From IMG/VR virus record IMGVR_UViG_2563366960_000002: 64,000 nucleotides of DNA. The stretch is one strand, 5' to 3'. The stretch's first letter is position 1, and every line of letters begins with the position of its first letter. The notes under the pieces are model-generated. The model saw nothing but the letters and a program-made list of their open reading frames with translations. It searched no databases and was not told the DNA's origin. The position numbers and the translations under genes are program-made. This stretch comes from a virus (Duplodnaviria > Heunggongvirae > Uroviricota > Caudoviricetes). Below, in pieces: positions 10,513 to 19,513 of the stretch.

Positions 10513-13659
<3,147 letters not shown>

Positions 13660-13660
13660 G

Positions 13661-13689
13661 AAAAGCCCGGCGATCGGGCTTTTCTTTTA
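13661..13689. terminator. bidirectional intrinsic terminator (AAGCCCG-N5-CGGGCTT with flanking A and T runs)
   Basis: Direct read between convergent genes. Confidence 0.65.
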
Positions 13690-13704
13690 TAATGGGTTCA
13701 ATTT

Positions 13705-14679
13705 TTATCCGTTACCGCACGACGGTTTCTGCGTGATAAACGTTTCAAGCATCTTTTCCGCGATTGCCGACCAGGTGTGACACTGGACCTTTTCAGCATT
13801 TTTCAGGCGATCAACGCGAGCAATCACCTCATCCCAATCAATCCGCGACTTGATAACCATATGGTTCACCAAAGCCAGGCGATCTGGCGGAAGGCAATCG
13901 GACGGCGTTAATATCAACGCCCCACACATTGCCGCCTCAAGAACAGTTAATCCAAGGCTTTCGGGATGCGTAACGATAAAAACGTCACTCTTACGCAATT
14001 CAGCTGCAAATTCGGTTGCTGGTACCGGCGTCCGTCTGTATGGAGTTACCGAAATATTCCCCGGATCAATGGTAACCAATCCGTCATCGGTCAACGTTCT
14101 GGCCTCATACGGAACAGTCAGACGCTGAAGGTTCATAAGGATACTTAAGGAGTGATCAAACCCACTAACATCAAATGCAGCGTGGTCTACAAAAATACGC
14201 AGAACATCGTCTGTTTTGGTTTCCAGATGGAACAGCTCCTGATTCGCTGCCCATCCAACATGTTTGTTAAAGCGATTATGACGCTCTAACCTGCCGGGAT
14301 TATCCAGGTACCGCCAGGTATCATCGCGGACAGTAAAAGTAATATCAACTGGTGCCGAATCCAGCATAGAACCGTCGTATACCTGAGCTACCCATCCAGT
14401 GAATCGACGACGCAGTTGCACGCCTATTTCCCTGGGCACCGTAGTAAAATACCGCAATCCTGGCGCTAAAATGGCTTTCGCAGAACACGAGAGCGCAGCG
14501 GTCAACACAGCTTCAACATAATCCTCCGGGCTTTCGACGCCGGGAGAATATGGACGATGGTATTGCAATGTTACCCCAGCCTCACTAAAGGCGCAGGCCA
14601 GGTTGTAAGCCCACATTTCCGTATATGTTTTCACATCACTGATAGCTTCAAATTTTCGCCCAATGATCAGGATGTTCAT
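13705..14679 (-). CDS. GT-B-fold glycosyltransferase-like protein
   Basis: 324-aa ORF; HPESLGLTVLEAAMCGALIL resembles the GT4 E-x7-E region. Confidence 0.5.
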   Translation of the reverse strand: MNILIIGRKFEAISDVKTYTEMWAYNLACAFSEAGVTLQYHRPYSPGVESPEDYVEAVLTAALSCSAKAILAPGLRYFTTVPREIGVQLRRRFTGWVAQVYDGSMLDSAPVDITFTVRDDTWRYLDNPGRLERHNRFNKHVGWAANQELFHLETKTDDVLRIFVDHAAFDVSGFDHSLSILMNLQRLTVPYEARTLTDDGLVTIDPGNISVTPYRRTPVPATEFAAELRKSDVFIVTHPESLGLTVLEAAMCGALILTPSDCLPPDRLALVNHMVIKSRIDWDEVIARVDRLKNAEKVQCHTWSAIAEKMLETFITQKPSCGNG

Positions 14680-14981
14680 TGCGTCTCCTTTTCCCTGACT
14701 AAAAGCTCATCCAGCTTGCTTTTATGTTTGAGCACATAGCCACATATTTTTCCTTTGGAGCTAATTTGCGGAATGGAATAATATTCCGAAAATACTAATT
14801 CAGCCTTTTCTAAGACAAGTGAAACACCATAGCGCGCAACATGTCTGTCGATCATTTTTGCATCTCTGAGATTACCTTTAATTGATAGCCAGTCGTTGAG
14901 GTACATATGGTTGCGATTGGCTTTTTTCAGCATGTCGCTCAACCAATTTTTATTACGCTTAGTTAGTTTCCGTTGCATCAA
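14676..14981 (-). CDS. hypothetical small protein
   Basis: 101-aa ORF translationally coupled between ban and the glycosyltransferase. Confidence 0.4.
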   Translation of the reverse strand: MMQRKLTKRNKNWLSDMLKKANRNHMYLNDWLSIKGNLRDAKMIDRHVARYGVSLVLEKAELVFSEYYSIPQISSKGKICGYVLKHKSKLDELLVREKETQ

Positions 14982-16342
14982 TAATCCTCTTGCCAGTCAG
15001 CACCAGCATAGTTATCAAACCGTGAGTATTGGCCGTTAAAAGCCAATCTCACCGTGCCAATTGGGCCATTTCGTTGCTTACCGATAATCACCTCGGCAAT
15101 GCCCTTCATTTCGCTATCCGGGTGATAAACTTCGTCGCGATACAGAAACATGATCAGGTCTGCGTCCTGCTCAATTGCTCCTGATTCACGTAAATCTGAA
15201 TTTACCGGACGTTTGTCCGCACGCTGTTCAAGCGATCGATTAAGTTGTGACAATGCCACCACCGGTACTTGTAATTCCTTCGCCAACGCCTTCAGTGAGC
15301 GAGAAATCTCGGCAATTTCCAGCGTTCGGTTATCTTGCAGCTCGGGGACGCGCATAAGTTGCAGGTAGTCGATCATAATCATGCTCAAACCACCATTTTC
15401 TTTATAAACACGACGAGCGCGGGAACGTAGCTCTGTCGGCGTCAGGGCGCTTGAGTCATCAATAAAAATATTCTGCTTGTCCAACAGAATCCCCATTGCG
15501 CCAGAAACCCGCGCCCAATCCTCGTCGTTAAGTTGCCCTGTTCGAATACGAGTCTGATCAACGCGTGCAAGAGAAGCCAGTGAGCGCATCATCAGCTGGT
15601 GGCTCGGCATCTCAAGGCTAAAAACCAATACGGGCTTATCGTTACGGACTGCGGCATTTTCGACGAGATTCATCGCAAACGTAGTCTTCCCCATCGATGG
15701 GCGGGCGGCGACAATAATGAGATCGGACGCCTGAAGTCCTGCCGTCTTCTTATTGAGATCGGTAAATCCGGTATCAAGCCCCGTTACACCATCATGCGGT
15801 CGCTGAAACAACTCTTCTATGCGAGATACCGTTGCATCGAGAATGCTGGCGATATCTTTTGGACCACTACCGCTCTTTTGTCGTTTTTCAGCTATTTCAA
15901 AAACGCGGCGCTCGGCCATATCCAGCAATTCATTGCTGCCCCTGCCATCCTGCGCATATCCAGCTTCGGCTATTTCATTTGCGACGGAAATCATTTCACG
16001 AACAACCGCGCGTTCACGAACGATATCCGCATAAGCACAAATATTTGCCGCGCTGGGCGTGTTCTTTGACATCTCCGCAAGGTACGCAAAACCACCGGCG
16101 CGTTCTAATTTACCGTTCTGTTCAAGTGCTTCAGCAAGTGTTATCAAATCAATCGGTTTGCCATGACTTAATAACCTCTCCATCTCACTGAAAATTTCAC
16201 GATGAGCACTGGTATAAAAATCATCAGCAACTATACGATCTGCAACTTCATCCCAGCGGCAGTTATCAAGCATTAAGCCACCAAGTACAGCTTGTTCTGC
16301 ACTAAGGGAATTTGGCATGGATTCAAGAGGGGATGCAGACAT
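14978..16342 (-). CDS. ban: DnaB-family replicative helicase (P1 Ban-like)
   Basis: N-terminal AEQAVLGGLMLD, Walker A ARPSMGKTTFAMN, Walker B IMIDYLQL; start set at ATG 16342 after GGTGGAG RBS (track ORF begins at GTG 16348). Confidence 0.85.
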   Translation of the reverse strand: MSASPLESMPNSLSAEQAVLGGLMLDNCRWDEVADRIVADDFYTSAHREIFSEMERLLSHGKPIDLITLAEALEQNGKLERAGGFAYLAEMSKNTPSAANICAYADIVRERAVVREMISVANEIAEAGYAQDGRGSNELLDMAERRVFEIAEKRQKSGSGPKDIASILDATVSRIEELFQRPHDGVTGLDTGFTDLNKKTAGLQASDLIIVAARPSMGKTTFAMNLVENAAVRNDKPVLVFSLEMPSHQLMMRSLASLARVDQTRIRTGQLNDEDWARVSGAMGILLDKQNIFIDDSSALTPTELRSRARRVYKENGGLSMIMIDYLQLMRVPELQDNRTLEIAEISRSLKALAKELQVPVVALSQLNRSLEQRADKRPVNSDLRESGAIEQDADLIMFLYRDEVYHPDSEMKGIAEVIIGKQRNGPIGTVRLAFNGQYSRFDNYAGADWQEDY

Positions 16343-16627
16343 TAGCACTCCACCCAGGCGTGCTGAATGTCAGATATAATCGGCATACTCAAATCACTCC
16401 TAACGATATGAGTCATCACCAGAAAATCAGGATTAATGCGCCGGACTCTTCCCGGCTGTCACACCGAATCGCCAGGATGGTGAGTCCCTGTATCCGCTAT
16501 CCCTCCAACGGTGACTTGCACATTCCGGCTACCTGGTTTGTTGCCTGAGCTAGGGGAAAAGGTAACCCCTTTAACGTCACCAGACCGCTAACGACGCATG
16601 TGCCAGACGCCGTGTTACAACCAAATA

Positions 16628-16703
16628 TGGTGGCCCCTACCGGACTTGAACCGGTGACCGTGCGATTATGAGTCGCCAGCTCTAACCACTGAGCTAAAGG
16701 GCC
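16628..16703 (-). tRNA. tRNA-Ile (anticodon CAU, ileX-like)
   Basis: Cloverleaf read by eye: acceptor GGCCCTT/AGGGGCC, D-arm GCTC-AGTGGTTA-GAGC, anticodon loop CTCATAA, T-loop TTCAAGT, encoded CCA; near-identical to E. coli ileX as recalled. Confidence 0.8.
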
Positions 16704-16730
16704 GGATTACTGCCAATTTTGCTTACGCTT

Positions 16731-17558
16731 TTATTTCACCGGAACAAACGGAACAGCGGCATTACTGGTCATATACTGCGGTAATGTACCGTTCCATTTG
16801 TTGATCGCTTCCAACTCCATAACACCGGGGTTCTGGCGCAGAGCTTCACCACGTAAACGAATGGCATCAGCTTCGGCCTGGGCTTTTGTGCGAATAGCAT
16901 CAGCCTGTCCGGCAGCTTCCGCGCGCAGCATGTTGGCCTCTGCTTCACGTTGTTTGACCTCTTGCTCGCGTTGCAGGGTTTTTTGGTTTGCCGTAACTTT
17001 GGCGTTAATACTGTCAATAACTGTTGGCGGATATTCTGGCTTACCTACATAAGAGAGGCTCATCACCTGAATGCCGATTGGCGTCATTTCTTCCTGAATG
17101 TCTTTAAGGGCTGCATCAAGCAATTCAGATTTGCCACCGTCGATAAATTTGTCGGTGGTCATTTTGCTGGCTAACCGGTTCAGAGCATCTGCAACCTTCT
17201 GGCGTAGATCGGTATCAGTAATATCATCTACACCTTTGCGATAGGTCTGAAATACCGTTGTGACTTTTGCTGGATCAACCTTGTAGGCTACGCCGATGTG
17301 GTAACCAATGGTTGTTCCGTCGCTCATCTGGAAGCTGAACGGCTCATCGTATGTCTTCATTTGCTTAAAGGTCGGGAAGATATAAACTTCAGTATTCAAG
17401 CCTGTCCAGTAGCGACCAACACCAACTACTTCACCGATACCTTTATCATCCCCCAGCTTATTTACTTTGATCCCTACGTTACCTGGCTCTACCCGATCGC
17501 ATCCGGTCAGACATAAAGAACCCAAAATAATCGCTGCACTAATCAACGTTTTTTTCAT
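16731..17558 (-). CDS. plp: SPFH/band-7 domain lipoprotein (P1 Plp-like)
   Basis: 275-aa ORF; signal peptide with lipobox LTGC; band-7 core and C-terminal coiled coil. Confidence 0.65.
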   Translation of the reverse strand: MKKTLISAAIILGSLCLTGCDRVEPGNVGIKVNKLGDDKGIGEVVGVGRYWTGLNTEVYIFPTFKQMKTYDEPFSFQMSDGTTIGYHIGVAYKVDPAKVTTVFQTYRKGVDDITDTDLRQKVADALNRLASKMTTDKFIDGGKSELLDAALKDIQEEMTPIGIQVMSLSYVGKPEYPPTVIDSINAKVTANQKTLQREQEVKQREAEANMLRAEAAGQADAIRTKAQAEADAIRLRGEALRQNPGVMELEAINKWNGTLPQYMTSNAAVPFVPVK

Positions 17559-17775
17559 TAATTAATTTCCTGGTTTTTTCACGAAAAAAGACTACTGCGA
17601 AAGCCGGGTAAATGAGCGCGAGAAGGACTCCCAACAATACAAGTATTGTGCTGTTAGATGAGATCATATTTGGCAAAAGCCAAACATACAGAACCAGTGA
17701 CACAATCAAACAGAGGACGGCATAAATATATAACCGCACCCATAGCGTTCGACATTTGTTCGGATTGTTCTGCAT
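17539..17775 (-). CDS. small membrane protein (P1 Upl-like)
   Basis: 78-aa ORF with two hydrophobic helices, overlaps plp start. Confidence 0.5.
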   Translation of the reverse strand: MQNNPNKCRTLWVRLYIYAVLCLIVSLVLYVWLLPNMISSNSTILVLLGVLLALIYPAFAVVFFREKTRKLINEKNVD

Positions 17776-17931
17776 CCTCTCACTCCATTATTTAACGAAT
17801 AAAAAAGCTGCGGTGCCGGGTACCTCCCGGTGTCCTTTGGCTGGTTATCCACCGTGGACGGGGAAACAAGGAGAAATGAATGGACTGATATAACCATTTC
17901 CCCGCGTGCGCTTAGCCGCATTCACCGCAAT

Positions 17932-18031
17932 GGTAAGAGCACTTGGCTGGCTGGGCGGCGATGACGCCTGTATGCATTTGGTGATCCGGTTCTGCTTCCG
18001 GCATTCGCTTAATTAGCCAAATACTCTTAAC
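17932..18031 (-). repeat. GGTAAGAGCA-initiated structured element directly 3' of tRNA-Ser (imperfect partner TACTCTTAAC)
   Basis: Direct read; shares terminal motif with elements at 18497 and 19038. Confidence 0.3.
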
Positions 18032-18038
18032 GTTGCGC

Positions 18039-18125
18039 TGGCGGAGAGTAATGGAATCGAACCATCATCGCTTGCGCTATGGGACGGTTTTCAAGACCGC
18101 TTGAGCACCATGCTCCCTACTCTCC
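18039..18125 (-). tRNA. tRNA-Ser (anticodon UGA), class II with long variable arm
   Basis: Acceptor GGAGAGT/ACTCTCC, anticodon arm GCGGT-CTTGAAA-ACCGT, T-loop TTCGATT, encoded CCA; D-arm spacing non-canonical, needs covariance-model check. Confidence 0.65.
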
Positions 18126-18259
18126 CGTTATTGTGGCGACCGGTGCTGATCTCCGGCTTGCGGTTATTTCAGACTCTCACGGGCGTTTAATTGCCCCGCC
18201 GAACAGCTCTTTTCCGCAATAGCTGCAATGTCTTTCGCGCATCAGCCTGCGCATTCACC

Positions 18260-18350
18260 ACAACGTTGAGAACACTGGTTGTCACGCGCAACGCAACATT
18301 TATTCGTAGATTGGGATATGACCCCGTTACGCCAGTGTTCTCAACGTTGT
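18260..18350. repeat. perfect 19-bp inverted repeat ACAACGTTGAGAACACTGG / CCAGTGTTCTCAACGTTGT around a 53-nt spacer
   Basis: Direct read, arms 18260..18278 and 18332..18350. Confidence 0.7.
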
Positions 18351-18496
18351 AGTGCCGGTTACGGTTCCGGCCAGGCCTCTTCCTCAACGGGGTGTTCTCC
18401 ATACGGACTACCGTTTATTGGTCGTTCCTGCGGTTTATGTTGTGAAGCCAGATGCTTATCTTCTGGTTGCTTCAAAGAGCTGCACTTCATCACAAC

Positions 18497-18570
18497 GGTA
18501 AGAGCATTTATGGCTCGCATCGCGGGAAAAAGCCCACGGTAGAGAGTCGAACTCTACAAATGCTCTTACC
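18497..18570 (-). repeat. tRNA-sized palindromic element (13-bp terminal stem GGTAAGAGCATTT/AAATGCTCTTACC, internal T-arm-like hairpin) directly 3' of tRNA-Thr
   Basis: Direct read; no full cloverleaf could be drawn. Confidence 0.45.
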
Positions 18571-18578
18571 TGTTGTGT

Positions 18579-18654
18579 TGGTGCCGGTTAACGGGATCGA
18601 ACCGCTGACCATTCGCTTACAAAGCGACTGCTCTACCAACTGAGCTAAACCGGC
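18579..18654 (-). tRNA. tRNA-Thr (anticodon UGU)
   Basis: Acceptor GCCGGTT/AACCGGC, D-arm GCTC-AGTTGGTA-GAGC, anticodon loop TTTGTAA, T-loop TTCGATC, encoded CCA. Confidence 0.8.
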
Positions 18655-18658
18655 AATT

Positions 18659-18745
18659 TGGTGGGGAGTGATGGAGTCGAACCACCCGAGTCGCAATGAC
18701 AGTAGATTTACAGTCTACCCCGCTACCCCTACGGACTAACTCCCC
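18659..18745 (-). tRNA. tRNA-Tyr (anticodon GUA), class II
   Basis: Anticodon arm GTAGA-CTGTAAA-TCTAC and variable arm nearly identical to E. coli tRNA-Tyr as recalled; acceptor GGGGAGT/ACTCCCC; D-arm spacing irregular. Confidence 0.65.
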
Positions 18746-18750
18746 TAAAT

Positions 18751-18827
18751 TGGCGATGGTGGGTGGATTCGAACCACCGACCGACAGCTTAGAAGGCTGC
18801 TGCTCTATCCTACTGAGCTACACCATC
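18751..18827 (-). tRNA. tRNA-Arg (anticodon UCU)
   Basis: Acceptor GATGGTG/CACCATC, D-arm GCTC-AGTAGGATA-GAGC, anticodon arm GCAGC-CTTCTAA-GCTGT, T-arm GGTGG-TTCGAAT-CCACC, encoded CCA. Confidence 0.8.
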
Positions 18828-19105: not shown

Positions 19106-19496
19106 TGTTGTGCCTCCCCGTTCCCTAATACACAGACGGGGACACTCTGCGGTCGATTTTTTGACGGGGGACGACTCATACCCCGTGGCGTCTGGCTTCT
19201 TAGGCCGCTACCATCATCAGATCATCGTTTGCATTTACTTTAATGGTCAGTTTCTAAACCGCCGCAAAGTCGCTAACCATGACGAAAACCCTGAAAAAAA
19301 CGCCCACCCGAAGATGGGCAAACTGGAAGCTCGTAACGCACTTCGGTGTTGCCACTTAGGCGTATGGTCAACCTGGCAACTCGGCGTCATGATGGGGAAG
19401 GAGTCACTACCCCGCCATACTTGCCGCCGCGCCTGTCGCGGCTAACAGCTAAATCGCTCTATAAATCACGATTCATTGATGCGATATTACACTAAT

Positions 19497-19513
19497 AAAT
19501 TTATTAGAGCAAT
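19497..19513 (-). promoter_or_regulatory. C1-type operator, perfect 17/17 ATTGCTCTAATAAATTT, overlapping the last codons and stop of dmt
   Basis: Direct read; -35-like TTGCTC inside, TAATAT 17 bp downstream on minus strand; a degenerate inverted site follows at 19451..19469. Confidence 0.7.

Follow-up and report, generated by a model that had tools for sequence, protein, structure and literature searches.

A predicted GT-B glycosyltransferase, its pmg partners, and a small ban-coupled gene in a P1-like phage element

We examined the genes downstream of the helicase gene ban in a 64,000-nucleotide (nt) stretch of tailed phage DNA (Caudoviricetes) from IMG/VR, record IMGVR_UViG_2563366960_000002 (the whole stretch is hereafter the window). 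The window shared 96.5–99.3% identity with Punavirus genomes (P1, P7, RCS47, SJ46, and others) and with hundreds of P1-like plasmids. Two genes concern us here, a 324-amino-acid (aa) open reading frame (ORF) that is, by sequence identity, the gene already named dbn in P1 and glt in P7, and a small ORF of 100 aa that separates it from ban. The reading that best explains our results as a whole, and that we favor by somewhat better than even chances, is that Dbn is a GT-B glycosyltransferase belonging to a module with PmgQ (and PmgO/PmgP) that P1-like elements carry in split form, and that the small ORF is an ancestral gene of this locus lost from P1 by deletion.

P1 is widely used in bacterial genetics, and its phage-plasmid relatives commonly carry resistance genes. 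The genes in question are known in P1 only as “downstream of ban” (dbn) and “putative morphogenetic function” (pmgO, pmgP, and pmgQ), and our literature search found no functional study of any of them. What appears to be new here is the conserved Dbn-PmgQ(-PmgO/P) cassette and the proposed origin of the P1 Dbn N-terminus as a deletion scar. The link to the module yields a specific and easily tested hypothesis for genes that otherwise carry only these labels.

Dbn and a glycosyltransferase module found across phages

Dbn (13705..14679, minus strand) was 96–98% identical to the Dbn/Glt proteins in P1-type phage records, which GenBank labels “function unknown, possible glycosyltransferase” in P1 and P7 and which NCBI names, for the P1-type cluster, “glycosyltransferase family 4 protein”. 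These orthologues occupy the same site between ban and gene 5 and share the same terminator. They differ in that P1 Dbn is annotated with eight extra N-terminal residues, whereas the window protein starts at a family-conserved methionine, and in that the window has the 100-aa gene between ban and dbn where P1 and P7 do not. Dbn matched PHROG 2518 (4e-231), and a database search returned 73 homologues with identities down to 28%. A preliminary description of this DNA had correctly picked out a 324-aa GT4-like protein, while missing that the gene already had a name, that partner glycosyltransferase genes lie 6–8 kb away, and that the small ORF is independent.

The GT4 EX7E motif (E240-x7-E248) and the surrounding THPESxGLxVLEA segment were invariant in an alignment of 44 Dbn homologues; the loss of GT4 catalytic residues, named in the preliminary description as one finding that would overturn its assignment, was not borne out. 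The same 44 sequences shared invariant N-domain residues D102, W143-A144, D165-H166, and D175, and the EX7E segment aligned with the same motif of the PDB glycosyltransferase 8xsg. An AlphaFold2 (AF2) model built from the homologue alignment had a predicted local distance difference test score (pLDDT) of 94.2 and a predicted template modeling (TM) score of 0.90. With this model, the top Foldseek matches in the PDB were GT-B proteins, mostly of the GT4 type (E-values 4.5e-9 to 1e-5, probability 1.0, TM-score about 0.6), including sucrose-phosphate synthase (6kih), GlgM (6tvp), BshA, PimB′, WaaG, and a phage glycosyltransferase. Like the retaining GT-B enzymes of CAZy family GT4, Dbn has a predicted two-Rossmann GT-B fold with an invariant EX7E motif in the C-terminal domain. 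Unlike them, it is short (324 vs 350–450 aa), shares only 9–14% identity with its fold matches, and has N-domain residues of its own, namely GWAAD at 142–146 in addition to the D102, D165-H166, and D175 positions. Its N-terminus, MNILIIGRKF, lacked a GGxG-type glycine-rich loop in the alignment, and no hydrophobic stretch reached 1.6 (Kyte-Doolittle-19), giving no predicted membrane segment.

Scanning viral contigs with the Dbn alignment recovered P1-like loci only, while placing a distant member first in the alignment yielded diverse loci. We compared the contexts of distant Dbn homologues and then searched their neighbors against the window with tblastn. A protein of ~220–234 aa with a DxD motif recurred directly downstream of the distant homologues, and the neighbor proteins matched the window ORFs pmgO, pmgP, and pmgQ, located 6–8 kb from dbn (E-values 1e-37 to 1e-64). 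PmgQ (233 aa; 5213..5914, minus strand), placed by tblastn, P1 annotation, and alignment, is a GT-A-like protein with an invariant D79-x-D81 motif and weak PDB matches to GT8-type GT-A enzymes; RefSeq calls it “glycosyltransferase”. The cassette partners PmgP (208 aa; 6585..7211, minus strand; DUF115, CstII/MAF-like) and PmgO (220 aa; 7109..7771, minus strand; alpha-2,3-sialyltransferase in RefSeq) are both MptE-like, with weak, subthreshold MptE-like/DUF115 matches and marginal CstII similarity.

We examined 19 further Dbn loci, spanning ~11 lineages, with profile hidden Markov models (HMMs). A PmgQ-family gene was present in 18, and in 14 of these loci it directly adjoins Dbn. The single locus where it was not found (L018) has a flank of only 5 kb, and the sister locus L047 has the gene. 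Three sequences had PmgO-PmgP-(GT-A)-Dbn-PmgQ as an unbroken run, namely the lambdoid contig L045, the P2-like contig L019, and the genome of EP_H11, a cultured coliphage. Judged by these gene contexts, Dbn-PmgQ(-PmgO/P) appears to be a conserved phage glycan-assembly module, a link that also appears to be new. In P1-like elements the module is split by the 26-25-7-24-6-5 tail/baseplate operon, with pmgO-pmgP-ppp-pmgQ on one side and dbn on the other, 7.8 kb from pmgQ in the window. Neither the window nor P1 has the contiguous, co-transcribed arrangement.

The cassette occurred in varied genomic settings. The Mu-like myovirus contig L136 carried it between the tail sheath and tail tube genes (6224–9186). 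In the siphovirus contigs L046 (4575–8460) and L135 it had head-tail connector genes on one side and head-completion genes on the other, and it was accompanied by sulfo- and methyltransferases. In the lytic coliphage EP_H11 (L199, 4891–7586) contiguous PmgO-PmgP-Dbn-PmgQ genes lay near an NAD-dependent DNA ligase gene. Aquatic T4-like contigs (L012, L014, L016, L129–L134) had Dbn in larger sugar clusters beside RecA/UvsX-like and DEAD-helicase genes; these clusters included a cytidylyltransferase-cupin fusion, a polysaccharide pyruvyl transferase, GT8-like and GT47-like proteins, duplicated PmgQ-like genes, and a methyltransferase. Two lambdoid phages had PmgQ-family genes without Dbn: in Chlobot (L200, 5001–5720) the gene stood between the integrase and tail-fibre assembly genes, and in phiNP (L201, 4463–5648) it was accompanied by a PmgO-like gene, the two being flanked by the lysis genes and terS. 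One Dbn homologue was found beside a KAP NTPase gene at a P2-like hotspot. We rejected a defence role for Dbn, as the neighbors at that site were the same glycosyltransferase partners and PADLOC defence models returned no match for Dbn or the small ORF at E-values up to 1.

In the window, as in P1, the pmgO frame shares 103 nt (7109–7211) with that of pmgP. The corresponding overlap is 4–49 nt in other phages, so pmgP may start further downstream than annotated.

The small gene between ban and dbn

The small ORF (14676..14978, minus strand) encodes a predicted basic protein of 100 aa and appears translationally coupled to both neighbors. Its ATG overlaps the ban stop codon (TGATG), its own stop overlaps the dbn ATG (ATGA), and good Shine-Dalgarno sequences precede the small ORF and dbn starts (AGAGGA and AAGGAG). 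The coupling downstream of ban had been noted in the preliminary description, which gave the ORF 101 aa; that length holds if translation starts at a TTG (14676..14981, minus strand), and the ATG at 14978 is the likelier start. Comparison by blastn with P1, P7, and RCS47 showed that the gene lies in a polymorphic segment of 288 bp (14680..14967, minus strand) that is present or absent among P1-like elements and is represented in P1 by 13 nt.

The small ORF was absent from all 18 P1-type phage records, and it was found in 52 PLSDB plasmids, compared with 471 that carry dbn. Among the P1-like loci in IMG/VR, 14 of 80 had it and 66 did not. It therefore persists in about 11–18% of P1-like elements. 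The layout of ban, dbn, and gene 5 was the same in the P1-type phage records. Just two junction states occurred, of 25 and 300 nt, the short one almost monomorphic, and the long-junction alleles in IMG/VR were all intact (14/14).

The family to which the small ORF belongs is tiny. Residues 1–100 aligned with profile positions 1–104 of 106 in PHROG 12809 (1.9e-46), and only six matches were found among 1.84 billion representatives. In Cronobacter phage JK004, a related contig, and a 94-kb “Candidatus Pantoea alvi” element (a phage-plasmid), the gene directly after the Ban orthologue (76–83% identical to Ban) encodes a homologue with 34–42% identity and overlaps the helicase gene by TGATG, as in the window. 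Others lie among the small early genes of Avunavirus and of Vibrio T5-like phages. Scans of IMG/VR and GTDB genomes for small-ORF loci added a single new context, an 8-kb inovirus-like contig (L043), an unexpected genome type in which a 145-aa homologue (3001–3438) sits downstream of Zot-like and pIV-secretin-like genes. The window protein has an isoelectric point (pI) of 9.9, with eight Lys/Arg among its first 25 residues, and the invariant residues of the family are M1, K4, L5, R8, N9, K10, L17, A20, R45, R49, E60, and P70. The AF2 model (pLDDT 84.7) has three helices, a small sheet, and a C-terminal helix, and a fold search found no match to it among solved structures.

The P1 junction preserves what looks like a trace of this gene. 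Its sequence ATGCAATGGAA equals the first 11 nt of the small ORF, which encode the family-conserved M-Q/K-R/K-K, and the P1 and window junctions also share a purine-rich stretch ahead of the dbn ATG. In family alignments Dbn proper begins at the methionine after MQWNEEKP. The simplest reading is a single deletion. Such a deletion, on the line leading to P1, P7, and the majority of P1-like plasmids, would have removed the small ORF and fused its first codons in frame to dbn, creating the eight-codon MQWNEEKP extension annotated on P1 Dbn. We consider the small ORF to be probably ancestral in the P1 supergroup, coupled there to the 3′ end of ban, rather than a later acquisition. The result would correct the annotated start of P1 Dbn, and it shows that the P1 reference genome is without a gene that its relatives carry behind ban.

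The opposite history, in which a P1-type ban-dbn junction recently gained the small ORF from a foreign source (as a moron), is in our view rather unlikely. It would account for the GC content of the small ORF (38.9%, vs 48.7% for ban and 48.9% for dbn), which fits later horizontal acquisition, for the minority status of the allele, and for its absence from every P1-type phage record. The low GC, however, is partly due to a Lys/Asn-rich composition, and an inserted cassette would bring its own start codon, whereas the first 11 nt of the small ORF are common to the P1 junction. The gene also occupies the orthologous site after Ban in JK004 and the Pantoea element. We likewise rejected a homing endonuclease or mobile cassette, having found no nuclease motif or domain and no junction repeats.

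The distribution of the small ORF suggests that it is an independent, separately inherited, and fast-evolving early accessory gene. It does not form a functional pair with Dbn: the ORF has no dbn downstream of it in JK004 or the Pantoea element, P1 has dbn but not the ORF, and none of the distant Dbn loci carries the ORF. Because each gene occurs without the other, the small ORF is presumably unrelated to Dbn function.

A more specific proposal is that the 100-aa protein is a dedicated Ban partner, acting as a loader or regulator or as an inhibitor of host DnaB/DnaC, which would account for its conserved coupling to ban. The loaders of phage helicases are typically small, and their genes adjoin that of the helicase. 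Two features of the small ORF are in keeping with such a role: three P1-related lineages share its TGATG coupling to a Ban orthologue, and its product has a strongly basic helix at the N-terminus in which K4, R8, N9, and K10 are invariant. In coupling to a DnaB-family helicase gene the small ORF resembles the genes for lambda P, P2 B, SPP1 G39P, and DciA-like proteins, but it has no sequence or fold similarity to them, is dispensable, and has been lost in most P1-like elements. Roughly 82–89% of P1-like elements are without it, yet ban is 98.6–99.3% identical with or without it, which argues that the small ORF is no obligate partner. P1 Ban functions without it in the reference strain, and the homologues in Avunavirus, the Vibrio T5-like phages, and the inovirus-like contig are not beside a helicase gene. 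A Ban partner is therefore very unlikely. Our best guess for the small protein is a dispensable accessory role early in infection, with nucleic acid or an acidic host protein as the binding target.

Proposed mechanism, glycan acceptor, and alternatives

In the mechanism we propose, Dbn would be a soluble, cytoplasmic, retaining-type GT-B enzyme that uses its GT4 EX7E motif at the donor site. PmgQ also occurs without Dbn (JK004, phi456, phiNP, and Chlobot), so it probably primes the glycan or carries out a core step, and Dbn would extend the product. Specifically, Dbn would next use a nucleoside diphosphate (NDP)-sugar to add a further sugar to the glycan as it grows on a macromolecular acceptor in the lytic phase, and our best guess for that acceptor is a virion protein. 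We rank a virion protein ahead of an envelope glycan, followed by other acceptors and, for P1, DNA last.

The placement of the cassette inside the structural operons of L136, L135, and L046 argues for a virion protein. Actinobacteriophages have glycosyltransferase genes beside their capsid or tail genes. Their virion-glycosylation sets contain several glycosyltransferase genes, sometimes with methyl- or sulfotransferases, in head/tail operons, as in L046, L135, and L136; the P1 genes differ in that they flank a head/tail-type operon rather than sitting within it, and the likeness is one of gene context alone. Such actinobacteriophage genes are mentioned in PMC11256854. If the acceptor is indeed a virion protein, virion glycosylation would extend from actinobacteriophages to enterobacterial phages, with a bearing on immune recognition and phage therapy.

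Several results weigh against the reading of Dbn and the pmg genes as one glycan-assembly system, alongside the composition of the small ORF given above. The P1 proteome paper reports no virion glycoprotein, and “glycos” appears nowhere in its text. The contexts of the cassette disagree on the acceptor, with structural operons in some phages, DNA-metabolism regions in others (EP_H11 and the T4-like aquatic contigs), and moron sites in still others (P2-like and lambdoid). In P1, dbn and the pmg genes belong to different transcription units. Dbn also falls below the gathering threshold of Pfam Glycos_transf_1 (PF00534; 24.5 vs 26.4 bits), with a match only to residues 221–307 in the last third of the protein, and no N-terminal GT4 domain model matched in Pfam or NCBIfam. 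The HMM classification suggested in the preliminary description thus failed at the level of curated models, while the fold and motif were GT4-like. We regard Dbn as a predicted divergent GT4-like GT-B enzyme that is no clean member by curated sequence models.

A broader and more tentative possibility is that Dbn, PmgQ, PmgO, and PmgP make up an unrecognized four-enzyme system that decorates virion proteins or, in EP_H11-type phages perhaps, DNA. Such a system would be portable across myo-, sipho-, lambdoid, P2-like, T4-like, and jumbo phages, and the small ORF would be an ancestral Ban-coupled modulator that laboratory P1 lost.

The preliminary description had proposed lysogenic conversion, and it had placed the genes on an early transcript. 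The second proposal agrees with the operator data. A bivalent C1 operator (Oban/Op72; 19486..19513) with consensus matches at 0 and 2 mismatches lies at the head of the ban operon, in a position identical to the P1 annotation, which puts the genes on an early, repressor-controlled transcript. The 17-bp C1 operator consensus ATTGCTCTAATAAATTT had nine matches at ≤3 mismatches in the window (3055–41187) where 0.46 were expected. These included Oban, a pair after pmgQ (5146–5211), and O26 (8819–8835), and the pmg unit has its own annotated C1 operator, conserved in the window. dbn is the predicted last cistron of the C1-repressed, dmt-proximal ban operon.

Lysogenic conversion would mean that Dbn and PmgQ/O/P add sugars to a host envelope glycan, such as the lipopolysaccharide (LPS) core, O-antigen, enterobacterial common antigen, or capsule, at the cytoplasmic face, altering adsorption or serotype. 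The P1 receptor is the glucose of the LPS core. The fold matches of Dbn include the LPS and cell-envelope glycosyltransferases WaaG and PimA/PimB′, and the PmgQ-only homologue of Chlobot, between integrase and tail-fibre genes beside int/att, stands at a classic site for conversion genes. Dispensability is also in line with this role, as dbn, pmgO, pmgP, ppp, and pmgQ are all non-essential in P1 and not needed for plaque formation (PMC10695390; for dbn by CRISPR interference and by an earlier knock-out cited there). However, C1 control of the operon leaves lysogenic conversion poorly supported: with C1 operators at its head, the dbn operon would be expected to be repressed in the lysogen, and only the putative internal promoters predicted within ban could alter that silence. 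Dbn has no membrane segments, no GtrA/B/C-type partner was seen nearby, and homologous cassettes occur in strictly lytic phages (EP_H11 and the T4-like aquatic group) and within virion structural operons. The Gtr modules (GtrA/GtrB/GtrC) are comparable as phage-borne, non-essential glycosylation genes, but they encode membrane proteins next to int/att and are on in the lysogen, whereas Dbn is predicted to be soluble and C1-repressed and has another fold and family. Envelope modification is therefore an unlikely role for the module.

DNA was the other acceptor proposed in the preliminary description, and we judge it highly improbable that the cassette protects phage DNA from restriction by attaching a sugar or oligosaccharide to a modified base. 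P1 DNA is classically restrictable, and no modification other than methylation is known for it. No thymidylate-synthase-family gene, which would supply a hydroxylated pyrimidine acceptor, was found in the 64-kb window by tblastn with a ThyA-family protein, a weak test that distant homologues could escape. Dbn proteins are acidic in most lineages (pI 5.6–6.9), and the cassette occurs inside the head and tail operons of temperate phages. One Foldseek match was the glycosyltransferase 9ir0 of phage HY126, whose DNA carries arabinosylated 5-hydroxycytosine, but this match was no better than those to many unrelated GT4 enzymes. In the T4-like aquatic contigs, RecA/UvsX-like and helicase genes adjoin the cassette, and a nucleotide-sugar-type enzyme and a pyruvyl transferase are encoded there too. 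EP_H11 and IME392, which carry contiguous PmgO-PmgP-Dbn-PmgQ, are placed by PMC12686479 in the same phage family as the SP-15, YerA41, and Carin-5-type phages with oligosaccharide-modified thymidine. That paper leaves the cassette genes unassigned, and the part of the P1-like genome covered by the window is without genes of the 5-hydroxymethyldeoxyuridine (5hmdU) pathway. DNA glycosylation is thus unlikely in P1 itself, while the occurrence of the cassette in EP_H11 and IME392 speaks for the proposal in phages of that type, where, if DNA is the acceptor, these genes would be candidate enzymes for an unsolved hypermodification pathway.

Layout of the locus and neighboring genes

Gene order in the window was as in P1. 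The plus-strand 26-25-7-24-6-5 tail/baseplate operon (ending at 13659) converges on the minus-strand ban-dbn operon. ban (14978..16348, minus strand) encodes a DnaB-family replicative helicase of 456 aa (Pfam DnaB_C 1e-107, DnaB 3e-35) and shares 98.6–99.3% nucleotide identity with P1, P7, and RCS47 (blastn).

The bidirectional terminator facing baseplate gene 5 that had been described earlier is recognizable as a terminator-like hairpin (13658..13686) between the convergent gene 5 (plus strand) and dbn (minus strand), bordered by the stop codons of gene 5 (13657–13659) and dbn (13705–13707). It has a 12-bp stem and a 5-nt loop with T/A runs on either side, and its folding energy was -18.9 kcal/mol (z = -4.97), with none of 200 shuffles folding equally well. 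A generic terminator scan missed the hairpin because the T run lies partly within the stem.

Upstream of ban, the operon contained five tRNA genes (16628–18827; Met/Ile2-type CAT, Ser-TGA, Thr-TGT, Tyr-GTA, and Arg-TCT), compared with three in the P1 reference. In place of P1 tciA/tciB/tciC, the window had a 275-aa SPFH-domain lipoprotein-like ORF and a 78-aa membrane ORF (16731–17775, minus strand). The same arrangement was found in phage RCS47, where the SPFH ORF is annotated as a “putative serine protease”.

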